From: Okamejei kenojei
Lineage: Eukaryota
DNA length: 64,000 nucleotides
Reading direction: 5' to 3'
Assembly: GCA_035221665.1 (NCBI GenBank)
Contig: CM069133.1
Location: 35,464,001 to 35,528,000, forward strand
Shown: positions 33,451-64,000 of the stretch, piece by piece
Numbering within the stretch: the stretch's first letter is position 1
Layout: every line of letters starts with the position of its first letter
Position numbers and translations under genes: made by a program
The notes under the pieces: model-generated
What the model was told of the DNA's origin: nothing
Databases searched by the model: none
Seen by the model: the letters and a program-made list of their open reading frames with translations, nothing else

Positions 33451-34544
33451 AAAGCAAATTGATGAATAAATAATCAACACACTCCCCACATGGGTCCACC
33501 TATCACTTGTCAGGCTTTGCCCCGCCCCGAATCACTTCCCGCTTTCTCTCCTCAATGGCTTTTCTCCGGGCTGCATCTTCGACCCGTCCTCGTGGCCTAC
33601 CAGCGGGCCTGGAGCGGCGTTTCCTGATGGGACCGGCCGGAACGTCGGCTTCGACGGCGGCTCAGCGCTGGAGCGCTATCGCGGAGCGGAGCGGGCGATG
33701 CCTTGCCTGGGTCGCTGCGCTGGAGCTCCGGTGAGCTGAGGACCGCCGACAAAAATCATCGCGAGAGGATTCTCCCGACGCCGGAGCACCATCACCCGGC
33801 GAGAACGGCCTGGAACATCGGGCCGCCGTGGAGGCAACCGCGGAGGCCTCAATGGGCCCGACTATGGGTGGACACGGGATGGGGACTGGACATTGTGCCT
33901 TCCCGCATAATGGGAACCATTGTGGGGGGATGTTTTTGTATGTTTCAATCTCTTTATCATTGTTATGTCTGTATTCTCTTTTTTCTGTGCTGCATTGGGA
34001 AGAAGCATTTCACTACACCAATTGGTGTATATGACCAATTAAATAACCTTTGAACCGATGAATTATAGAGAGACGTATTACGAATACAGCCCCCCCTCCC
34101 AACACGCCGAAGGATATGAGGAATTTTTTAGCCATAGGGTGGCGAATCTGTGGACTTCATTGCCACGGAAGGCTGTGGAGGCCAAATCAATGGATATTTT
34201 TACGATTTGTGTGAGGAAGGAAATGTAAAAATTGAATAACCCGCTGTTATCGAGCAATGAGAGCACCCTGTCACCCTGCAATGAAAGGCAAAACTACAGG
34301 CATTTCGTCAGAGATAGCTCAGTTGCTGCTTCTTCATGTTTTTGTTTATTTCTGAGAAAGAAATGCAACAGTTGATATCGTCATTTGTTGGCCAATGTTC
34401 AGGCAGCGCTAAACCACAACAATGATTTGGACAAGTTGGGCTGTAGGGCCTGTGTCCACACTGTATCACTCTATCTATAACTCTAAGATGTCTATTGACA
34501 CAACAAAAAAAGACATGCGGGAGTGTTGGTCAAGATGTTCTCCA

Positions 34545-34790
34545 ACATCTCTGGAGAACATGGATAGGTGACGTTTCACAGAGTGCTGGAGTAACTCAGC
34601 GGGTCAGGCAGCATCTCTGGAGAACATGGATAGGTGACGTTTCACAGAGTGCTGAAGTAACTCAGCGGATCAGACAGCATCTCTGGAGAACATGCATAGG
34701 TGACGTTTCACAGGTAACTCAGCGGGCGAGGCAGCATCTCTGTAGACCATGGATAGGTGATGTTTTTGGTCGGGACCCTTCTTCAGTGTG
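34545..34790. repeat. Tandem array of about 66-bp Penelope-derived units
   Basis: tggataggtgacgtttcacagagtgctggagtaactcagcgg... recurs at 34561, 34627, 34693 and 34750. Paralogous array at 60365-60580. Confidence 0.88.
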
Positions 34791-35741
34791 GAAATGACAA
34801 TTATACAGTTTAGTTGAGAGATTCAGCGCAGAAACACGCCGAGTCCGACACAAAGTAGAGACACTTTTACATTTACAGCAAGAAAATTAACCTACCAACT
34901 TTTGTGTCTCTGGAGAGTGGAAGGAAACCAAAGATCATGGGAAAAAGCGTACAAATCTGTACAGACAGCACCCGTAGTCTGGCTCGAACTTTGCGCTCTG
35001 GCACTGTAAGCGTTGTATAAGGCAACAACGCTGCAGCACCTAATCGCCCATGAATAATCACCGAGACAGGAATTAAACTTCACAGCATTAATGTCATCCT
35101 CTACCATGGGCAGAAATCCTGGGGGGACGGGGGCACGCCCCCCTCCATGTTTTGAAAGGTGGGAGACAATCCCCTCCCCCCATGTTTTGTAATCCAGATT
35201 TTGAAATACGGTGAAAAAATATATATTAAAATCTCCGCTTTCCGCGAGACAGTAGGTGTTGTCACTGTTAAGCGCTTGTTAAATGTCGCTATTAACATCG
35301 ATTTAACACGACGTGTCACCAATTGTGTTTTGACCATCAAGTATCACTGAAGGTTTTCACGGAGAATTTCATAAAACTGTCCAATGCGGGTACAGTTACC
35401 ATTTGAACTAATTGGATGAATTGGTGGATGAGAAAATTTTAAACGAGTTAAATGGGTCAGGTATTAATGTCCGGTCGAACGGTTTTCCAGGCTGGCTTGC
35501 AGATAAGTCCCTCATTCAGGTCACTCAGGTTATTTAGTATTTTCCCATCTCTCTCTCTCTCCCCTCCATGTTTGGTTCTGTTTGCCTTTATTTTCTTCTG
35601 TTTTATTTGTTTAAGTGCTATTTATCACATTATAGCTTTTGAAAGATTCAATCGGGTATTAGACGCTTTCTAACGGCTGAATCGTCCCATTAGCGGGGCC
35701 TTTCATCGCCCAGTCACCAACCAGGACAGCTCCCGAAAGTA

Positions 35742-35975
35742 GACTGAAGTGCTGGAAAAACTCAGCGGGTGAGGCAGCATCTATGGAGCGAAGGAATAGG
35801 TGACGTTTCGGGTCGAGACCCTTCCTCAGATTTCGTCTGAGGAAGGGTCTGAAGAAGGGTCTCGACCCGAAATGTCACCTATTCCTTCGCTCCATAGATG
35901 CTGCCTCACCCGCTGAGTTTCTCCAGCATTATTCTCTACCTCCGATTTTTCCAGCATATGCAGTTCTTTCTTAAA
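35742..35975. mobile_element. Divergent inverted pair of hammerhead-motif Penelope-derived repeats
   Basis: Minus copy CTGAGGA-AGGGTCTCGACCC-GAAACGTC at 35829-35802. Plus copy CTGAAGA-AGGGTCTCGACCC-GAAATGTC at 35849-35876. Arms nearly perfectly complementary. Confidence 0.75.
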
Positions 35976-49999: not shown

Positions 50000-50480
50000 G
50001 CAATGTATTAGCCAATAGAAGCAAGGCTGCTCTGGGAGAGCGGCAGTGAGGGAACGGCCTTGTGAGTAAAGTGTGAGTCTTTGGCTCGAGAGTCTTCAGC
50101 GAGGGGGCTGAGGAGAGGAGACTACCCAAAAAGCTGGAGGTGACGAGACGCGGTGAACGCATGAAGGGGAAGATGAGACAGTGTGATGCTTGCAGAATGT
50201 GTGAGCCCGGAGACACCGATGGAGCCTCTAGCTGCTACAACTGTGGCAAGTGCATCCAGGTTCAGCTCCTGAAGGACCGTGTTGGGGCACTGGAGAAGCA
50301 GCTGGATGACATCTGGGCCATCCGGGACCTACCGTGAGGTGGTTACGTAGAGTATACGGGAAGAACGAAGGTGTGCGACCGAGAGAAAGGGTGGTAACCG
50401 GAGTGCAGGAGACCCAGGTGGCTGTGCCTAATGAAAACAGGTAAGCCCCCTTGGGAACTGTCGTGGGAGACGACACTTCC
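50000..50480 (+). mobile_element. CR1-type LINE 5' end / ORF1 fragment (zinc finger plus leucine zipper)
   Basis: MRQCDACRMCE...YNCGKCIQVQLLKDRVGALEKQLDDI: CxxC...CxxC followed by heptad leucines. Confidence 0.75.
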
Positions 50481-50735
50481 AGTCTCCCAGGCAGTAGAGA
50501 GAACTGCGCTGAATCTTTGCAACTCTCTGCGCCAAAACGTGTACTGCCAAGATGACGTCTGCTACATGATTTTTCAGGGTTGTCTGCAAAACAAAGTATT
50601 TCACTGTACCTAGGTACGTGTGAGAATTCAGTATTATTGAATTGAACCATCAACATATATTGATCAGTATTGTACCGGGGGAACCCGCGGTCCGTGAGCT
50701 CTGGGGCAGCGACAGTCTCTGAACATTGTTCTCAC

Positions 50736-51106
50736 CTTCCACAGTCAGCCGCGTTGGAATCACAAATTGAAAATACCCAACACTGAGTTCCAGGAAGCAC
50801 CGGTACTTATCACTGTCCTCCCGTCTCAGTGGCTCCACCATTATCGAGGCATCTCTCTCTCTGAGGTTCCCCACGAATTTGAACCGACCTCCTCCGGCCT
50901 TCTGTCACTTCATCGCATCGGGGGCGGCCGGGACCCGTATATGTGCACTTAAACACAAGGCTATGAGGCCTTGATGACACCTTGTGCCACAGCACGGAGC
51001 CGGTGAGGTTGTGATCAATGCCTGGGTGGGTGAATGTACACGGCAACACAGCGGAGGCCCCTTCCACGGCAGAACCTCATCAGCACTGGATATTGTCCAA
51101 TCATTG
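50736..51106 (-). pseudogene. V1b exon of gene C (SIGLEC15-like V-set), two frameshifts; 5' end in gap
   Basis: WTISSADEV (shift) EGASAVLPCTFTHP...VFKCTY...RCDEVT (shift) VGNLRERDASIMVE...YRCFLEL...RLTVE then G|GTGAG. Confidence 0.88.
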
Positions 51107-51289
51107 NNNNNNNNNNNNNNNNNNNNNNNNNNNNNNNNNNNNNNNNNNNNNNNNNNNNNNNNNNNNNNNNNNNNNNNNNNNNNNNNNNNNNNNNNNNNNN
51201 NNNNNNNNNNNNNNNNNNNNNNNNNNNNNNNNNNNNNNNNNNNNNNNNNNNNNNNNNNNNNNNNNNNNNNNNNNNNNNNNNNNNNNNNN
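51107..51289. other. Assembly gap
   Basis: N run. Confidence 0.99.
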
Positions 51290-51698
51290 ATTGGAACGAG
51301 TACAGGTGTGAGGTTCCAAATCCACACTGTCCCTGGGTGGTTGTCACAACCGATGTTTTCAGAATCACCAACACGGGGACTGGGATATAATCAACTGTTC
51401 GTGGATGTGTAATCACGCCTTTTCGGCGGGTCAGTTAGTTTTTATAATGTTGCTGATTTATTTACATTCCGGGGAGGAGAAATGTTTGGACATTTTGCAG
51501 GACCGAGGACGGAGATGGATTCTGGGGATTCTCTCACTGTCACATAATGGATTCACAGTGGCGACGGCCATTCGTTCCATCGGTTCTATGCTAACTCCAT
51601 GTTACATCAATCCAGCCAGTCGGACTTGTTCTCCATATTCTCAACAGACAGCCCTGCAACTTACTTTCACATACCGTCGGTTAAATTTGCCGGTCTCC

Positions 51699-51731
<33 letters not shown>

Positions 51732-51937
51732 ACCCCCCCCCCCCCCCCCCTCTCCCGCCGCCGGCACCGCGTCCCATTGGAACCGCTCCCTGTGAGGACT
51801 CACGTCCCCCAGCAACACACTGATTCCTTGGCCAATCACCTCGATGCTGTATCGTCATATCTTCTCTGTCCACCAATGGGAACAACCTCCCTGTACGCAA
51901 TGTTAAATCCCTCCATTAGATCTCCTCCCGACCTCAC

Positions 51938-52300
51938 CCACAGATTCAAATTTCCCAACACTGAACTCCAAGCGGCACCTACAGCTATCACTGTCCTCCC
52001 TTCTCAGTGGCTCCACCATTATCGAGGCAGCTCCTTCTCTGAGGTTCCCAACGAATTTGAACCGACCTCCTCCGGCCTTCTGTGTCACTTCATCGCATCG
52101 GGGGCGGCCGGGACCGGCATATGTGCAGTTAAACACAAGGCTGTGAGGCCTTGATGGCAACTTGTTGTACCGCAGCACGGAGCCGGTGAGGATGCGATCA
52201 GTGGGCAGGTGGGTGAATGTACACGGCAACACAGCGGGGGCTCCTTTCATGGCAGACTCCGCATCCGCACCGGATATTGTCCAACCATGGTACGCAACGT
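51938..52300 (-). pseudogene. V1a exon of gene C (SIGLEC15-like V-set): open frame, G-strand truncated, core W>R and Y>C
   Basis: Acceptor ctctttccag|. DVAYHGWTISGADAES...AVLPCTFTH...VLRYN...VFNCTY...RFKFVGNL...SCRCRLEFSVGKFESV then G|GTGAGG; 363 nt. Confidence 0.85.
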
Positions 52301-52356
52301 CTGGAAAGAGAGAGAAAGAGAGAGGGTGAGAGAGAGAGTTGAGAGAGAGAGAGAGT

Positions 52357-52402
<46 letters not shown>

Positions 52403-52417
52403 AGGGGGTAGGGGGTA

Positions 52418-52563
52418 NNNNNNNNNNNNNNNNNNNNNNNNNNNNNNNNNNNNNNNNNNNNNNNNNNNNNNNNNNNNNNNNNNNNNNNNNNNNNNNNNNN
52501 NNNNNNNNNNNNNNNNNNNNNNNNNNNNNNNNNNNNNNNNNNNNNNNNNNNNNNNNNNNNNNN
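52418..52563. other. Assembly gap within a GA/poly-G tract
   Basis: N run flanked by poly-G and (GA)n. Confidence 0.99.
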
Positions 52564-52571
52564 NGGGGTGT

Positions 52572-52627
<56 letters not shown>

Positions 52628-53532
52628 GGGAGAGGTAAATATTGGAACAAGTATAGGTGTGGATTTCCAAATCCACACTGTCCCCGGGGTGTTGTCACAA
52701 GCGATGCCCTCAGATGTCTGTGGGATAGACACATCAACAGGGGAACTGGGTTACAGGCTGGGATATAATCAACTGTTCATGGGTGTGTGATTCTCGTCTG
52801 TTCCCCGGGTCAGTTGGTTTTTATAATGTTGCTGATTTACTTTCTGGGGAGGGGAAATGTTTGGACATTTTGCAGGACAGGAGACGGAGATGGATTATTG
52901 GGATTCCCTCACTGTCACATAATAGATGCACAGTGGAGACGGCCGTTCAGCCCATCGGTTCGATTATGGCTCCCTGCGATGACTCGTGTCTCCCAGAAAC
53001 AAACGTGTTTCTTTGGCCAATCACCCCCATTCTCTATCGTCATCTCTTTTCTGTCCACCAACGAGAACAACCTCCCTGTAAACAATGTTAAATCCCTCCA
53101 TTAGATCTTCTCCCAACAGTGTTACGAGCTGGAAACCAGTCGGTCCTTCCAGCTCGCACCACCGACGATAACATCGCGGCTGCTCTGCTGTTAATTCTCT
53201 CTCCATATCCCCGCCTGCTTTCTGTCACCTTGCCCCCTCTTGCTTATCGAGAGTCTCACTGTTTTATGAATGGTGGTCTCCATATGCATATTCTTCCATC
53301 TCAGCCGTCCCCAGATAACCTTCACCAAGGGCTCGCTTGGTCAAGAGGGCGCCTCGCCACCAACTTCTGAAGGACACAGATATGGACAATATCGCCACAT
53401 TCTCCACACGTCCCACCCCTTTGAGCCAAAGTACGAACAGCTGGAGTGCGGAGAGAATGGGAAACGGAACATTGGTTGAGATGACGAGACCAAGGGGAGA
53501 TAACAAAGAGGGTCAACAAAAAAAACTCCTAC

Positions 53533-53593
53533 TGTGACCGTGGACGGAGACGGAGAGCAGGATGGTGCAGAGACAAACCCAGAGAGATCACAT
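53533..53593 (-). pseudogene. Leader exon of gene C with a nonsense second codon
   Basis: ATG TGA TCT CTC TGG GTT TGT CTC...CAC A|GTAGG; 61 nt, matching the gene A leader. Confidence 0.85.
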
Positions 53594-53642
53594 CGCCAAC
53601 ACTTCAGTGTGGAGACTACCTCACCCACTTCTGCGAGCTTCT

Positions 53643-54865
53643 TTTTTTTTGTTGTTTTTTTTATTTGTTTATTTTTGTTAGAAATAAGTACCTAATACAT
53701 ACTTAAATATTTCCATTCTTGTACAACTTCATACTTTTGATTTAATAATAAAAGAACAGTGAGAGAAAAAATAAATAAAGAGTGTCGGAATAGATAGTCA
53801 AGCGAGTAGAAACAGAAAGTAAAAGAAATAAAGGACAGAGATGAGAAGTTAAAAGATTGAAAGAAAAGGAGAAAGTAAAGAAAATAAAGATTAGGAGAGA
53901 TCTACCTATCTCGTATTTTTGCCCATCCATCACCCGGTTCTAAACCATTTAGTTTCTAAGGTTATGTCATGTTGCAACATATGCTTGTAAAAAGTTGATA
54001 AAGGGAGACTAAATCTTTAAGAATAGGTCCATTTTGCCTAGTAGGAGGGATCTCATTTCTTCAAACTATCCATTGTTGATAAAACGTATATCCATTGGGA
54101 AAGAATAGGAATTAAAACGATGGGAGATATGTATGAAATGGAAAAACTTTTATCATTCCGACAATTACAACTAAAATATAATTTTAAAAGTAATCAATAT
54201 TTCAAATATCTTCAAATTCAAGATTATTTGAAAAAATATATACAAAGATATCAAACTTTAACTCCAGATTTATTGGAGGAAGGAATAAATAGAACGGCAG
54301 AATCAAGCAATTTAATATCTATCTTATATAATACGATTCTAAATATAGAAATACCAACGACAATTAGAAGGGACTGGGAACAAGAGTTATTGATAAAAAT
54401 TCTGAATGATAGATGGGAAAAAAAATTATTATATGTAAATAAATGTTCAATGAATGTAAGATATAACCTAATTCAATTTAAAATTTTACATAGATTATAT
54501 TATTCGAAAACTAGACTGAATAAAATATTTTCAAATGTTTTTCCCATCTGCGACAAATGTCTAATTCAAAATGCCACTATAGCACACTCCTTTGTCTCTT
54601 GTACAAAACTGTATAAATTTTGGAATTAAATGTTTGGAATTTTTACAAAACTATTTAACACAAAATTGAACCCCAATACAGAACTGATTATCTTTGGATC
54701 AATGGAAGAGGGAAGTAAACTAACTATATTCCAAGAAGCTTTTCTTAATTACGGTCTAATAACAGCAAAATAACATACTCAAATTTTGGAAAAACGTACC
54801 GACACCAACATTCAAAATGTGGATTTCAAGCATGTCTGAAATGCCACATCTTGAAGAAATGAGAT
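53643..54865 (-). mobile_element. 5'-truncated, 5'-inverted L1 insertion with TSD
   Basis: Poly-T, 3' UTR and ORF2 tail on the minus strand (53643-54064). The preceding ORF2 segment (LIQFKILHRLY, CDKC...H...C) is on the plus strand (54065-54865). TSD ttctgcgagcttct / ttctgtgggcttct. Confidence 0.9.
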
Positions 54866-54907
54866 TCTGTGGGCTTCTTGATGCGGAACAGGCTCGAAGT
54901 GTTTCTT

Positions 54908-54916
54908 CACTTCCTG
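54908..54916 (-). promoter_or_regulatory. ETS/PU.1-type site (CAGGAAGTG) in the displaced proximal promoter of gene C
   Basis: Homologous position to GAGGAAATG near 11574-11582, upstream of the gene A leader. Confidence 0.35.
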
Positions 54917-54934
54917 TAAAAAGTTAAGAGATAG

Positions 54935-56172
54935 TCATAAAGTCATAGAGTCATAGCCATAGAGTGATACAGTGTGGAAACAGGCCATTCGGCCCAACTT
55001 GCCCACACCGGCCAACATGTCCCAGCTCCATGTGCCCTAGCTGCCTGCGCTTGCTCGACATCCCTCCAAACCTGTCTTATCCACTTGCATGTCTAACTGT
55101 TTCTGAAAACGATGGGATTGTCCCAGTGTCAACTACCTCATCTGGCAGCTTTCCCCACCAACCCACCACCCTTTATGTGAAAACGCTAACCCTCAGACTC
55201 CTCTTTAATCTTTTCCCCTTCACTTTGAACCTATGTCCTCTGGTCCTCAATTTCCATACTCTGGGCAAGAGTTTATGTGCAATTTTCCGATATATTCCTC
55301 TCCTGCGCGTGAAGGAATAGAGACCCAGCCGACTCAACCTCTCCCTATACCTCACACCCGCTAGTCATCCTCGTAAATCTTCTCAGAACCTTTTCAAGCT
55401 TGACAATATATTTCCTGTAACATGGTGCCCAGAACTGAATAAAATACTCGGTCTCATCAACGTCTTATACAACTGCAACATGACCTGCCAACTTCTATAC
55501 TCTGATTGATGAAGGCCGTGCCAATAGCCTGGTTGACCAACTTATCTACCTGCGACTCACCTTCAAGGAACCATACACCTGGATTCCTATATCCCCCTGC
55601 TCTACAACACTACACAAAGGCCTGCCATTCACTGCATAGGTCCTGCCATTGTTAGATGTCCCGAAATGCAACACCTCACACTTCTCTGTATTAAATTCCA
55701 TCAATCACTCCTCAGTCCACCTGGGTAATCGATCCAGAACCTGCTGCAATTTTTCACAACCCTTTTGACTCTCTGCAAAACCACCCACTTTTGTATCATC
55801 GGCAAACTTGCTAATCTAGCCCTTATGTTCTCACCCAAATCATCGATGTAGATGATAAACTGTTACTTGCCTAAAACCGAACACTGAGGCACACCACTGG
55901 TCACTGGCCTCCAGTCCGAGAAGCTACCTTCCACATTCACACTCTGCTTCCTTCCTTAGAGCAAATTTGCTATCCATTCAGCTACCTCTTCTTGGACCCC
56001 ATGCGATCTAACCTTCCAGAGCAGCCGACCATGCGGAACCTTGTCAAATGCCTTATTGAAATCCATGCATACAACACTAACAGCTCTGCCTTATCAACCT
56101 CTTTGGTCACGTCTTCAAAACACTCAATCAGGTTTGCGAGACACGACCTCCCACGTGCAAAACCATGCTGAC
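54935..56172 (-). mobile_element. CR1-type LINE 3' fragment
   Basis: QHGFARGRSCLANLIE and RTRGHRFKVKG, with a (CTATGACT)n-like tail. Confidence 0.85.
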
Positions 56173-59100
56173 ATTGGGGGTAGCAAATGGTGAATACAGT
56201 TTGTATGAGGAAGTGAATCAACGAGTTTTGCACAATTTGCTAACCCAATGTCAGCGGAAGCTGAACTCTGCAACGATAACCCCACAGTCACCTCTTCACC
56301 AACAGCTAGGTTGTTTGTCTCTCGCGGTTTTCTGTCCTTGAACCTGAAATGCAGAAGTTGCTCTTATCATTTGCTGCAGAATGTTCAGACACCGCTAAAC
56401 AACAACACTGACATTCATGACTCATAGGAAGCAGGAGGCAGAGTTGAGGGCGAAGTCATTCTAGGAATGTGCGGCACAGCAGCAAACTTGGCCCCAAGGG
56501 AATCCTGCCTTGACTATAGGGGAGCACTGCAATGAACATCGGGGGCAAAGGATCCAAAAATGTATTGAGATTATATGGAAATTATTGTGCAATGTTTGTT
56601 TGGAAGCAGCCAGTTTAAACTGAATCCCGTAATATCATACGTCTCCCAGCATCAGGGCATGTCAACTCTTTTTTTTTAAAGAAGGAACTGCAGATGCTGG
56701 AGAATCGAGGGTACACAAAAAGCTGGAGAAACTCAGCGGGTGCAGCAGCATCTAAGGAGCGAAGGAGATAGGCGACGTTTCGGGTCGAGACCCTTCTTCA
56801 GACTCCCATGTCACTCTTTGTTTCGTTGTGTCCCAATCACGTTAAACCAGATTTCCGGCAACCTTGCTGACATCTCCAGTCCTCCATAGAACAATGGAAC
56901 TAGAGGCCGGGGTGCGATCGGGCAGCAAAGGGCGGGATGTGCGTCTTTCCGCAAACAAAGACCCGGGCCCTCACCGACCGCCGGTAGACTCCAATGGTCA
57001 TCCGAAATCTCCTCCCCAATGCCTGGGTGCCCTCTGCTATCGATAAGATCTCACGAGTGTTTAACTGTCGCATGCACCATGACAACAATGACATTATTGC
57101 TGCAACTTTATAGGCCCACTAAATGCAAGAACAAAACTGCAACTTTGAGGTAAGTTATCAGTTAATCTTCTAAACCAAACCACAGTAATAGAACCTCAGT
57201 GCAAATTTCTTCGTGTTTCGACCCGGGTGTCATCTTGTGGCTTGGGTGCAGAGTGTGGTTCAGACGCGTTTTGGTTGAGGACGGCCTGATTGCAATCGTG
57301 TAAAGTTCTTTGATGGTCAGCACGCATCAGCATCAAGGCCAACACCATCAAGATGTGCAACAGGTTCTTCCCGCTGGCTGCTGGAATGTTGAACACACTG
57401 TTGCCCCCGAACGCGCACACGCACACGCACCTCATCTAAATCACACCTCTGCTCTGCACTGACACCTTACATCTATATGAACTACTACGTACCCTGAACC
57501 TCAACGCCGTGAGGAACGACATTTAGTTCAAATGTATACTTACATGTTCAAATGACAAATACATTATTATTAATATATTATTTATTATTTCGCATCCTAC
57601 CCAGTACGGTAAATGTACAGTAGCCATTTAATCTACAAACACGCAGGTCTTTGGAGTGAGGGAGGAAATCGGAACCTCCGGAGAAAACCCATGCAACACA
57701 GTAGAACGCGCAAATTCCGTACAGACAGCACCTGAGGTCAGAGTCGAACCCGGGTCTGTGCCGCTGTAATGCTGACCTCCATCGTACTGTATCTACTATA
57801 AGATCTTTGACAAAACTCCCACGCGGTTGGCAGGTCCAAAAATGTTCGAACCACTGGGATCGAAGGGAAGTTTCAAAATAAACCTCAAATTGTCTAGCAA
57901 CATGACCTCCCAACTTCTATAACCTGATTGATGAAGACCAAGGTGCCAAACGCCTAGTTGACCACCTTATCTTCCTGCGACTCACCTTCAAGGAACCAAA
58001 CACCTGGATTCCTAGATCCCTCTGCTCTACAACACTACACAGAGGCCTACTATTCACTGCCTTTGTTAGACGTCACGAAATGCAACACCTCACACTTCTC
58101 TGCATTAAATTCCATCAATCATTCCACAGCCCACCTGGGTAATCGATCCAGAACCTGCTGCAATCTTTCACAACCATCTTAACTATCTGCAAAACCACCC
58201 ACTTTTGTATCAATAGCTAACTTGATAATCTTGCCCTGTATGTTCTCAAACAAATCATTGATGTATATGACAAACGGTAACGGGCCCAACACCGAACCGT
58301 GATGCACACCACTATTCACGGGCCTCCAGTCCGAGAAGCAACCTTTCACATTCACACACTTCTTCCTTCCATGGTGCCAATTTACTATCAATTCAACTAT
58401 ATCTCCTTGGATCCCATGCGATCTAACCTTCCAGAGCAGACGACCATGCGGAACCTTGTCAAATGCCTTACTGAAATCCATGAATACAACATCTACAGCC
58501 CTGCCCTCATCGACATTTTGGCCACGTCTTCAAAAACCTCAAACCTGTTTGCGAGACACGACCTCCCATGTGCAAAACCATGCTGACATTGGGGTTAGCA
58601 AATGGTGAGTAAAGTTTGTACGAGGAAGTGAATCAAAGAGTTTTTCACCATTTGCTACCCCCAATGTGAGCGGAAGGTAAACTCTGCAAAGATAACCCCG
58701 CGGTCACTCTTCACCAACAGCTCGGGTGTTTCTCGCTCGCGGTTTTCTTTCCCTGACCCTGAAATGCAGAATTTGCTCTTATCATTTGCTGCAGAAGGTT
58801 CAAACACCGCTAAACAACAACACTGACATTCATGACTCATAGTTCGCAGGAGGCAGAGCAGTGGGCAAATTCATTCCAGGAATGAGCGGCACAGCATCAA
58901 TCTTCGCCCCAAGGGAATCCTACCTTGACTATAGGGAAGCACTGCAATGAACGTCGGGGGCAAAGGATCCAACAATCCATTGGGATTATATGAAAATTAT
59001 TTTGCAATGTTTGTTTGGAAGCAGCCAGTTTAAACTGAATCTCGGAATATCATATGTCTCCCAGCATCAGGGCCATTTCAACTCTTTGTTTATTTGTGTC

Positions 59101-59615
59101 CCAATCTCGTTTAACCAGATTTCCGGCAACCTCGCCGACATATCCAGTCGCCCATAGAACAATGCAACTAGAGGCCGGGGTTTGATCGGGCAGCAAGGGG
59201 CGTGATCTGCTTCTTTACCGCAAACAAAGACCCGGGCACTCACCGACCGCCGGTAGTCCAATGGTCATTCCCATCCGAAATCTCCCCCCCCCCCCCCCCC
59301 TCCCCAAATTCCTGGATGCCCTCTGCTATCAACAAGAACTCACGAGTATTTAACTGTCGCAAGCACCATGACAACAATGACATTGTTGCTGCAACTATAC
59401 AGGCCCACTAAATGCAAGTTTGAGGTAAGTTGTCAGTTGTTCTTGTAAACCAAACCATAGCAGTGCAAGCCACAGTAATGGAACCTCAGTGCAAAGTTCT
59501 TCGTGTTTCGACCCGGAGGTCGGCTTGTGGTCCGGGTGCTGAGTGTGGTTCAGCAGCGTGATGGTTGAGGACGGCCTGATTGCATTCGTGTAAAGTTATT
59601 TGATGGACAGCACGC
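55475..59615. repeat. Tandem segmental duplication (about 55475-57325 vs 57898-59615)
   Basis: Collinear CR1 fragment, ETS-motif block and unique sequence occur twice. Confidence 0.92.
56672..56806 (-). mobile_element. About 135-bp hammerhead-motif retroposon with A-tail and about 14-bp TSD
   Basis: CTGAAGA-AGGGTCTCGACCC-GAAACGTC at 56801-56774. Flanks catgtcaactcttt / catgtca-ctcttt. Absent at the paralogous site near 59075. Confidence 0.8.
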
Positions 59616-62149
59616 AAATATAAAAGACTTTCACTGTACCTCGATATATGTGGCAATAACAAAGTAAAGTAAAGTAAATTATCTAAGAAGCTGTTCTTTA
59701 AACATCCGATCAGGTTCGCATGCCCTGCATCTTCCTCTTGGTACTAGCAGTGAGATAAGAGAGTGAGCAGGGTGATGTTGTATTTGATGACATTAGCTGC
59801 ATTGTTGAGCCCAGGGTTCATGTGGACCCTTCATGCTGTTCCGTATTTCGCTGTTCATGGCTTCCGGCATCTACAGGGAGATCGCTGACGCTGCATTCTT
59901 CGAAAAAGACAAAGGCTAGGGCAATTTGAGCAACAATATAGTGAGACGTATTATGAATACAGGCCATCCAACCCTCCGAAGGAGTTGTGGAATTTATTTA
60001 GTCATAGGGAGGAGAATCTGTGGACTTCATTGCCACGGAAGGTTGTGGAGGCCAAATCAATGGATATTTTTACGCTTTGTGTGAGGAACTAAATGAAAAA
60101 ATTGAATAGCTCTCTGTCATCCTTCCATGTGAGCACCCTGTCACCCTGCGATGAAAGACAAAACTACAGAGGCAGCTCAGTTGCTGCTTCCTTATATTTT
60201 TGTTTATTTCTGAGCAAGAAAGGCAGCAGTTGATTTCTTCATTTGTTGCCCAATGTTCAGGCAGCACTAAACCACAACAACGATTTGGGCAGGTTGGGCT
60301 GTAGGGCATGTTTCCACACTGTATCACTCGAGGACTGATGACTGTTGATGCAACAGAAAAAAAGACATGCTGGAGTAACTGAGCGGGTCAGGCAGCATCT
60401 CTGGAGAACATGGAATGGTGACGTTTCACAGAGTGCTGGAGTAACTCAGCGGATCAGGCAGCATCTCTGGAGAACAGGGAATGATGACGTTGCACAGATT
60501 GCTGGAGTAACTCAGCGGGTCGGGTAGCATCTCTGTAGAACATGGATAGGTGATGTTTCTGGTCGTGACCCTTCTTCAGTGTGAAGATGATAATGATACA
60601 GTTTAGTTGAGAGATGCAGCGCGGAGACAGGCCGAGTCCGCACCGAGCAGCGATCTCTGCACATAACACTCTGCGACACAAACTAGGGACGATTTTAACT
60701 TTATACCAAGCCAATTAACCTACCAATTTGTATGTCTGGAGTGTGGGAGGAAACCAAAGATCTTGGGGAAAAAACACGGGGTCACGGGGAGAACGTACAA
60801 ACTCCGTACAGACTTTACCCGTAGTCTTGGAACTCGGGGCTCTGGCGCTGTGAGCGTTGTATAAGGCAACAACACTGCACCACCGTACCGTCCTGCAGTA
60901 ACCACCGTGCCAGGAATTAAAACTTCACAGCATAAATGTTCTCCTCTACTAATTTATTGACAAAGATTAACACAGTACTGCATTGTCATTTGTACCTTCT
61001 GTATCTCTCGTTTCCATTTCCCTTCAATTTCGGCCCGAAGAAGGGTCTCGACCCAAAACATCATCAATTCCGTGTCTCTAGAAATGCTGATGGACCCGCG
61101 GAGATACTCCAGCTATTTGTGTCCTGCTGCAGTGTATCAATTTCACTAGTCTATACATGAGATGTTTGCAATTGACAATACTAATTGCGTTTCCCACCTC
61201 TTTCCCTCGTCTAACGTCTTGTGGGTCCCTTTATGAATCCTCACGACCTAATCTCTCACCTTTTCACAAATTCTCAGTTTTGGTTCCGTCCATCGCTGTG
61301 GATAACCTGACAGTATACCATGTTATCTATCTTTTCCCAACTATTCTCTCAGCTTGTCCACATCCCGCTGAATCCTCGTTACTACTGCTGCGATCTCAAC
61401 GTCTCACCTAGTCCATTGTCATCAGCAAACCTGGGACGTACATTGACATGTTGGGGGGGGGGCATTGACACCATTCCCAAACTCCCCCCTGTCTCTCTCT
61501 CGCTGCTACATCGAGGAACGCACTGGAGCTTTTTTTCTTGCACCCGAGCAGCTCGCCAATTTCATTACTTTTATCATCTATCTCCACCTGTTCCCAAATA
61601 CATTGGATCATCTCTGGCACCTCTCTCCCATTTCATGATCTAACCATTTCCTTAACCCATCACCCCCCTGCCCCCGCCCCCCGCCTCCGTCCCCCCCCAC
61701 CCCCCCTCTCCCCCCCCCCCCCCCCCTCCCTCTCTCTCTCTCTCTCTCTCCCTCTCTCTCGTATTTATTTGCTGGGTTATTGCGTTAATGTGGCCACAAA
61801 ATTGAAGCAAGTACGAATTTCGTTGTTCCCTTCCTGGTGCGAATGACATATGAACACTCCTGACTCTTGCCCATCCAGCCATTCTGCTCTTCATTCACCC
61901 TTCGGATTCCCGTCCACTCCCAGTAACCTGTCACCCACTTGCCGACCGAGCGTCTCACCGAGTGTCGTCAAACCTGGCAACCATGTTCATCTCTGTTCAG
62001 CTCCACTGGCACTGAGTGAACTATATGCGCGGACCGCAGCTCTCTGTCCTCCGGACCCACCACGTCGCTTCCCCACATTCTTCCCCCTAAAGGTAATATT
62101 TCACAATCATCAGCATTGAATTAACACCGGTGGCCATCCTCCAAACACC

Positions 62150-62331
62150 TCCCACTCTCCCTCCCCCTTTCTGTCTCTCTCTTCCTCCCTTGCCTCCTTC
62201 CCTCCCTTGCCTCCTTCCCTCCCTCCCTCCCTCCCTCCCTCCCTCGCTCCCTCTCTCCATCCCTTCATCTCTCCCTCCCTCCCTCTCTCCGTCATTCCCT
62301 CTTTCCCTCCCTCCCTCTCTTCTTCCCTCCC
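62150..62331. repeat. (CCCT)n-like polypyrimidine low-complexity tract
   Basis: Directly visible. Confidence 0.9.
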
Positions 62332-63648
62332 AGGTTAGACGAGTTTAGATGAATCGCCTTCCATCACAGTGAGGAATGTGGAGGAGTCACTGTGGTGGAT
62401 GTTCATGTTAACATGAATTGTCTGTGTTTTGTTGCTTTCTTTTGGTATGAATGTATGGCAAATCAAATTTCTCGTATGTTGCAAATCATACTTGGCTAAC
62501 AAATTATCATTATAATTATGATTAAGATTATGATGGAGCCAGACAGCCATTCAGCATCAAAAACTACCCTTCGGCCCACCATGTGCATGCTGACCGTCAG
62601 ATACCAGCAATTGGGCCGTAGCCTTTTACACCTTGGTAAATCATGTTCACATGTACCGTGAGAGTACCCGTCTGCACTACTCTCTCCGGCAGAGGGAGTT
62701 TCGAGGGATAATGGGTCCGGCATGTGAATACAACAGAAAGTGCTGGAGGGACAGGCAGCATTTGTGAAAGGAATGGTTCGGCATTTCGGGTCGGTACGAG
62801 GATTTGTTGGTAGATAGGTATAGATCAGTTTCAAATATGGATTAAATACACGGGGGGAAAGTACAGAGTAAAACGCAGGACACCGAAGAACATTGACTTG
62901 CAGAGGTATCTTGTTGGGAAGCAAATCCTCAGCCCTCTGAAAGCGGCAGGACATGGGCATAGTGTTGAGGAACGATTGAGACGTTTAGAATGGAAGTGGT
63001 GGACTTCACGTGGAGACGTAAGAAACTGCAGATGCTGGATTTTGTTTCTCCCACGATCCCACCAGAGATGGTAACGAGACAAAATGGCGTAAGCTGAAGA
63101 GAGAAAATTAGTGAAGTGTAAATTCACAGGGAGGGATATCGATGGAAAAAGATATGGCTGGGAAAGGGGAGCGGGATAGTGGGAGAAACAGATTTTAGCA
63201 TCTGCAGCTTCTTGCAATGTATTCAAGGGAATGACGTCCAACATACCCATTCTAAACGTCTCAATCTTGCCTCAAATCTATGCCCATGTCATTTGGGGGT
63301 GAAAATGTGCCGCCACTTCCAGAGAAGCTAAGATTTGCATCCCAAGATCCCCTCTGCAAATCATTGTTCTTAAGATTCTTCTGCATTAACTCTGTGCTTT
63401 CCACCCAGTGTTTCTCAAACATAAATTTGAAACTGGAATCCACATGCTGCTATATATTCCCTTACAACCGACCTCCTATCCACAACACTCCAATGTTGCG
63501 TGGTCAATCTGCAAACTTAATGAATCAGCCCACTGGACATATCCAATCCAAACCTCGGGAGAACTACACGAGAGGGGGAAATATCAGGAAAGAAAACGAA
63601 AAATCAAAACAAAGACGCGGTAATCGTGTCACCCAGAAACCACGTTAC

Positions 63649-63709
63649 CTGAAAACCCCGACTGAGACGGAGATCAGGAAGGTGCAGAGTAAACCCAGAT
63701 AGAGCGCAT
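63649..63709 (-). pseudogene. Orphan leader exon copy E (frameshifted as assembled)
   Basis: ATGCGCTCTATCTGGGTTTACTCTGCACCTTCCTGATCTCCGTCTCAGTC...CAG|GTAACG, homologous to the other leaders. Confidence 0.72.
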
Positions 63710-64000
63710 CACACCCAACACTTCAGTGTGGTGTCCTCCTCACCCACTTCTGTTAAATTTGTTGATACTGAAGTCGGTCAAGTATTTCATAATTTCGTAA
63801 TAATGGAACACCGATGGTGTTTGCACTTCAGCTTGTCATGGGTCTGCGAGTCCCCTGCTACAGAAACATCTCCTCGGCCCAGCACATGATTCTTCTCATC
63901 GATCCACAACTCGGTTTAATTTCCATTTACCACCTAGCACTCAGTGGACATAGGACAGAATTTAGGACTGACGCCCCCCCATCAGTCCCCTCTGCCATTT

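Follow-up and report, generated by a model that had tools for sequence, protein, structure and literature searches.

Results

A recent insertion at a duplicated target site

The window, i.e. the whole stretch of 64,000 nucleotides that was analysed, contains a local duplication (55475-57326 versus 57897-59616), the two parts of which are 87% and 81% identical. The first copy carries a minus-strand insert that bears a hammerhead core, and the features of the locus are given in Table 1. The initial annotation had described a unit of about 135 bp on the minus strand, flanked by a direct repeat of about 14 bp and missing from the duplicated copy near 59075. These three points were confirmed: the insert has the length proposed, the repeat is of 14 bp on the left and 13 bp on the right, and the paralogous segment presents the target only once.

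Table 1 Features of the locus. Positions are those of the window; relative positions count from the C of the hammerhead core, 56801, which is set to 0.
Feature	Position	Strand	Basis or remark
Target-site duplication (TSD), left copy, 14 bp	56658..56671	+	sequence; single copy at the empty ortholog
A-run of 9 at the 3′ end of the insert	56669..56677	-	4 templated by the parent, 2 additional, 3 belonging to the target
Inserted unit (from a young autonomous Penelope-like element: the pseudo-LTR end with the hammerhead, and the tail of 33 nt)	56672..56806, 135 bp	-	131-nt exact match to L196:5150-5280; 45,976 exact 32-mer core copies in the genome
Penelope tail between two 3′-end clusters (putative RT starts, one near +92 = 56709, the other near +127 = 56674)	56674..56708	-	of 125 3′ ends, 80 are short, 44 are long and 1 is intermediate
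Minimal type I hammerhead core with an additional A, a stem II of 4 bp (56782-56793) and a palindromic stem III that lacks a loop	56774..56801	-	predicted cut after 56774; sequence, motif count versus shuffles
5′ boundary: AGT of the parent element (putative transcription start 56804) after two untemplated G's	56802..56806	-	parent has CC there; 57/125 copies start at -5..+3
TSD, right copy, 13 bp, minus one A	56807..56819	+	contigs of both organism-A runs cross without gaps
Empty target site in the paralogous segment, one copy	59074..59087	+	sequence comparison

The site was also compared in a second organism. In the two runs of organism B, one contig of 1022 nt, which is ~95-97% like the first duplicate copy, joins 56664 straight to 56813; the orthologous site is therefore empty. 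In the two runs of organism A, the window's own, contigs span both junctions of the insert. The empty paralog, the empty ortholog and the contigs across both junctions together establish that the insertion is real and recent. The order of events proposed earlier, with the insertion after the duplication, agrees with the absence of the unit from the paralog, and the empty ortholog in the second organism adds support.

The parent element

The copies that extend upstream of the unit have in common a pyrimidine-rich UTR and a GIY-YIG frame. A protein search led to L196, a full-length partial tandem made of a 5′ pseudo-LTR (pLTR) with the tail, a short leader, an open frame of 1197 codons and a 3′ pLTR without the tail. 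The pLTR repeats of L196, of 898 bp, are 99.8% identical. The frame matched the RVT_1 (E = 5e-6) and GIY-YIG (E = 4e-3) domains, both below the Pfam curated cut-offs, and its translation contains a C-x4-C-x2-C linker, which fits the CX2-5CxxC motif before GIY-YIG. This linker marks the Neptune and Nematis clades (available text of PMC8557442). The parent element presents the characters of EN+ Penelope-like elements (PLEs), i.e. an RT with a C-terminal GIY-YIG, partial-tandem pLTRs, inverted 5′ copies, a tail of 30-40 nt and a TSD of variable length.

The insert corresponds to the 5′ pLTR and tail of L196 over 131/131 nt, the only additional bases being two G's at its 5′ end and two A's at its 3′ end. 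Haplotypes were common to short and extended copies, with zero mismatches in 27/47 versus 25/40, and in this comparison no variant private to the short copies was found. The exact match, together with the same variants in short and extended copies, indicates that the unit is part of an autonomous element and not a separate SINE. By its sequence the insert is a solo Penelope leader insert, derived from a young and intact family, probably of the Neptune/Nematis type by its linker motif. At its distal site L196 has four templated A's; a T-rich target end could therefore prime and slip there, which would give an occasional A-run.

The copies in the genome and their ends

An exact 38-mer of the unit is found 34,660 times, and an exact 32-mer 45,976 times, in the genome of 2.76 Gb. 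The repeats appear similar to those known from skates and rays. The first DNA search had pointed to a fixed GGGAG start, but it favours rare words. For this reason 125 copies were taken as an unbiased set from the first matches listed on contig C1; a few of them are duplicates inside larger repeats (L045/L107; L111/L113). The 5′ ends of these copies lie at -5..+3 in 57 cases, further upstream in 43, at +4..+24 in 17, at +25..+31 in 6 and beyond in 2. The main cluster is ~8 nt wide; it is abrupt on its upstream side, where 10 ends fall at -4 and 2 at -5, and trails off downstream. Per nucleotide and per copy at risk, the frequency of ends is 0.069 at -4..+3 versus 0.0013-0.0025 upstream of -10. 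Random 5′ ends, which the initial annotation had named as a sign of ordinary truncated insertions, are thus not what the copies exhibit.

The 3′ ends are bimodal (Table 1), and the 33-nt gap separating the two clusters, the first near +92 and the second near +127, is the Penelope tail. Head-to-head inverted pairs account for 31/125 copies. Among the 83 non-inverted copies, 37 have a TSD of at least 8 bp (median 13), compared to a mean of 1.0 for shuffled flanks. Target-primed insertion with a TSD, as proposed, is in agreement with these values and with the 14-bp duplication at the locus. Regarding the marks by which a family was to be recognised genome-wide, the TSD was recovered in this set, the picture for the 5′ end was mixed, with 57/125 copies in the cluster at -5..+3 and 43/125 running on upstream into the 3′ UTR and GIY-YIG ORF of the element, and an A-tail is not general. 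In the same way, the A-run end described at the locus exists, but only two of its nine A's are extra, and a run of 5 or more was found in only 6/44 long copies.

The GGGAG 5′ end was rejected as a fixed end. It is carried by most of the 30 loci of the first search, as a result of search bias, and is not fixed in the 125 copies, where the G's come from the target, from pieces of the element or from untemplated addition. Between the TSD and the element there are mostly 0-3 extra nucleotides, and of the 11 unbiased copies in which the TSD is clear and additional bases are present, only 3 end in G. By hand count, a G precedes solo inserts in 36/100 cases at position -3 (p = 0.055) and in 44/100 at position -2 (p = 0.003), which is a modest excess.

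The initial annotation regarded the unit as an independent SINE-like family. A SINE-like or retrozyme-like family of this kind, in which the solo units would carry the promoter and the RT-binding fold and act as the main templates, is very unlikely. It would account for the fact that solo units are the majority and keep the 5′ boundary, that the long ones keep a body-tail helix (94% paired in 28 copies, without covariation above shuffles), and that only 113 exact leader copies are present to feed ~46,000 inserts; moreover, non-autonomous PLE derivatives are known (MRC1, available text of PMC8557442; retrozymes, available text of bioRxiv 10.64898/2026.07.22.740005). It does not agree, however, with the lack of a private haplotype in the short copies, the 100% identity to an intact element, the upstream extension of 43/125 copies or the rarity of the A-tail. 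Furthermore, the protein of the anole element requires for binding an RNA region downstream of the start sites, which solo units lack (available text of PMC11167929). Recurrent rearranged junctions, considered as possible SINE masters, were rejected since their common flanks identify them as passengers in other, larger repeats. Solo copies may nevertheless be used as templates at a low rate.

The hammerhead core

A Penelope-type minimal hammerhead with its core about 5 nt from the 5′ end had been proposed, and the core indeed starts 5 nt inside the 5′ end of the insert. In the hammerhead search, the strict minimal motif had 3 matches in the window versus 0 in each of 20 shuffles; Rfam returned no hammerhead match in 50000-64000. 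The catalytic core, the extra nucleotide, the G10.1-C11.1 pair and the palindromic stem III of the minimal type I definition (available text of PMC4209133) are all present. Helix I is of only 2 bp, compared to the 4-5 bp of this definition; its third pair is unpaired in 24/28 copies, and its pairing probability in the monomer is predicted to be near 0. For stem II, the 5 bp and 2-nt loop of the first description are better replaced by 4 bp and a loop of 4 nt; this stem is 89% paired in 28 copies. In these 28 copies no covariation above shuffles was found for the folds, and the monomer is predicted to fold otherwise than as a hammerhead.

None of the 125 copies has its 5′ end at the predicted cut (+28), and no signs of cleavage were seen in the inserts. 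A ribozyme-defined 5′ end was rejected on this count. With 5′ ends that are not random and yet do not fall on the cut, the unit cannot be called ribozyme-defined, and the sequences point to the hammerhead being, most likely, an uncut passenger of the element.

The 5′ boundary could also result from processing of the RNA, either at a 3′ splice site (the pyrimidine tract and CAG just before the core) or by hammerhead cleavage. We consider this origin extremely unlikely. An acceptor-like sequence is present, and in D. virilis an intron ends at helix I (available text of PMC4209133), but the copies present no common upstream exon and mostly 0-3 extra nucleotides before the element, no donor-to-acceptor junction was found among the 41 parsed, and the ends nearest to the cut are 6 within +25..+31, of which 4 belong to inverted pairs. 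In L196, the pyrimidine tract ending in CAG lies at L196:5120-5152, and the leader closes with a donor-like site (L196:5311-5319); the two would frame an exon of 161 nt, and no spliced junction of this frame was found in the genomic copies. Self-splicing from the donor-like site of the leader to the acceptor-like site was likewise rejected, no such junction having been found.

Tandem loci and their junctions

Loci were selected by the leader motif after the tail. We examined 88 leader-bearing loci, which comprise 43 short direct tandems (42 and L270), 40 long copies and 5 others; the junction sets drawn from them are small and were selected by the exact leader motif. L271 and L282 were removed, being the same loci as L270 and L281. 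The junction analysis was done without L281 (no anchor) and L306, and the Fisher tests without L333 (mis-parsed); L322, L324, L346 and L352 fall outside both junction classes and L314 outside the long-copy count.

For most of the tandems, the end of the last (downstream) unit is close to +92 or +127; in the tandems the preceding (upstream) unit ends 184-673 nt downstream, inside the leader or ORF. The RT therefore appears to have begun internally on a continuing RNA, copied 5′-ward and then jumped downstream. Some tandem junctions repeat two or three times. Two classes of junctions were distinguished. Untemplated inserts occur at 11/14 junctions at -7..+5 versus 4/22 further upstream (p = 5e-4), and microhomology (1-4 nt) at 1/14 versus 17/22 (p = 8e-5). 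Six of the 11 inserts at -7..+5 end in G (p = 0.03) and several are A-rich. Such bases are those expected if the RT jumped end to end, from a capped 5′ terminus to a 3′ terminus with an oligo-A tail. Among 198 loci there were five direct pairs, some of them redundant, and none was clearly a host-flank jump, the sample being too small. In L274 the two passes of the tandem both end at -42/-43, where the junction contains one additional G; this may be a minor start site.

These junctions bear on the view that the inserts are ordinary 5′-truncated Penelope insertions, in which the RT, working on long read-through RNAs from the 3′ pLTR, would stall or be trimmed close to the hammerhead or to the pyrimidine tract, where the RNA itself would not end. 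By hand count, only 1/32 ORF-bearing long copies that reach +7 stops at -5..+7, versus 55/100 at -4..+3 in the unbiased set; the boundary is therefore not a simple intrinsic stall. The sharp upstream edge of the boundary and its junctions, which show untemplated inserts and not microhomology, likewise argue against truncation. In its favour, 43/125 copies are classical variably truncated insertions, the third pass of L285 stops at -4 when its earlier passes had reached -33, and a helix is predicted between the 5′ end and the end of the tail (z = -1.1, not significant). Taken together, we judge truncation to be an unlikely origin of the boundary.

Discussion

A proposed model for the solo leader inserts

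The leader is identical to that of an element with RT and GIY-YIG, the 3′ ends form two clusters, the 5′ boundary lies at about -4, the TSD is of 14 bp and the tandems have their cDNA start at +92/+127. The insert is the 5′ leader of an autonomous Penelope-like element, and we propose that it was probably written by an RT that began within the element's RNA and reached the end of its template at the capped 5′ end. In this model, an internal Pol II promoter would produce a capped RNA starting at about -3, in what we take to be an initiator-like context. A promoter and a transcription start internal to the pLTR were reported for Penelope (PMC2377424) and for Chlamys-3 (available text of PMC8557442). 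The protein of the element would then nick the target DNA and prime at +92 or +127 and, at this locus, the T-rich target end would slip on the four templated A's. The RT would copy 96-131 nt to the cap and might add G's. The short cDNA would usually be linked to the target, giving a solo insert, and on occasion would fold back or jump to the RNA's 3′ end, and the hammerhead would be carried along uncut.

In retroviruses and LTR elements, minus-strand strong-stop DNA is primed near the 5′ end of the RNA and extended as a short cDNA to the cap, and a strand transfer follows. A comparable cycle can be put forward tentatively, as a possibility with somewhat less than an even chance: the RT, primed by the target in the 5′ leader, would copy ~100-130 nt to the cap and transfer to that RNA's own 3′ pseudo-LTR, and these steps could be repeated. 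The likeness is an analogy and not a membership, since here the primer would be nicked chromosomal DNA and not a tRNA, and the short product would integrate directly. If true, the cycle would explain the solo leaders (no jump), the head-to-head pairs and the canonical partial tandems, and the short retrozyme-like tandems would come from a jump to an RNA that had ended too early and carried an oligo-A tail, or to a microhomology; neither ribozyme cleavage nor a covalent RNA circle would be needed. The full-length copies could arise either via the jump or from read-through tandem RNA. In the openly accessible main papers on template jump, template switch or strong-stop in Penelope, we found none proposing this cycle. 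Template jumps were mentioned for ORF inserts (PMC3846280), and circular templates were proposed (available text of PMC4209133).

Comparison with known systems

The family resembles the EN+ Neptune/Nematis-type elements, as far as described in the available text of PMC8557442, by its single ORF with RT and C-terminal GIY-YIG, the CX2-5CxxC linker, the partial-tandem pLTRs, the head-to-head inverted copies, the 30-40-nt tail and the hammerhead in the pLTR. It differs from them by a very high number of young copies, mostly solo leaders of 100-135 bp, by a helix I of 2 bp and by the position of the frame, with no ATG in the hammerhead core and the first Met ~36 nt after the tail.

For PAc, a Poseidon element of Anolis carolinensis, the RT was found to start in vitro at two internal sites, one on either side of the tail, with uncut RNA as the substrate (available text of PMC11167929). 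The two putative start sites around the tail, the probably uncleaved template and the lack of ends at the hammerhead cut are the same here. The work on PAc is in vitro and proposes a multi-copy mRNA. Its available main text discusses no solo leaders, copying to the cap or template jumps, and a 5′ pile-up may appear in its Fig. S2, which deals with genomic ends.

The minimal hammerheads of metazoan PLEs have in common with the present one the core, the extra nucleotide before stem II, the G10.1-C11.1 pair and the palindromic 15.2-16.2; helix I is of 4-5 bp in these and of 2 bp here, as in the D. virilis variant, and stem II is of 4 bp here (available text of PMC4209133). In the same source such motifs are mostly single and "probably related to truncated PLEs". 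With the non-LTR retrozymes (available text of bioRxiv 10.64898/2026.07.22.740005) the family shares an origin from the pLTR of a PLE, and the 43 short tandems resemble their newborn arrays of 2-4 units. The tandem junctions lie here, however, at the putative RNA 5′ end or at microhomologies and not at the ribozyme cut, and the locus is a monomer, where a retrozyme has at least two consecutive hammerhead units.

The element itself is ordinary, and solo Penelope hammerhead motifs were described before. The ~46,000 young copies constitute a very large natural record of how a Penelope element copies itself. Their junctions bring support from within a genome for internal RT initiation, hitherto known mostly from in vitro work on a single element. 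They also point to a capped RNA end and to template jumps as the source of solo leaders and retrozyme-like tandems. As L196 is intact and full-length, the model is directly testable; as the ortholog is empty, inserts of this kind are clean presence/absence markers.

Related repeats in the window and in the genome

The window (1-64000) contains 22 more matches to the unit, at 67-87% identity (95% for one short match), so that related leaders occur every few kb. Two arms of an older subfamily, a short one and a long one, form a head-to-head pair at 35734-35975, and the strict hammerhead motif is present in both. At 34543-34786 and 60360-60579, with similar flanks in both places, arrays of 66-bp units repeat the segment from about +20 to +86 of an older hammerhead subfamily; they resemble tandems left by old template jumps and carried within another repeat. 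On the minus strand, each half of the duplication contains one broken reverse-transcriptase frame (55982-56239 and 58179-58529), presumably CR1/L2-like by their motifs. For the remaining duplicated segment, relatives were seen only on contig C3.

Elsewhere in the genome, L222, L224, L228, L236 and L237, as well as L209, L212 and L214, are rearranged inserts within two other multi-copy repeats, which have since amplified them. In L019:1470-1510 the end of the ORF is fused to the hammerhead via a direct repeat of 6 nt, the 3′ UTR being deleted, and L013:1290-1610 presents the piece -4..+30 as three short repeats inside an inverted pair. Finally, at C5:64991487-64995481 (L296, L297) two leader motifs are 3,962 bp apart, probably in a full tandem dimer and a candidate source locus.
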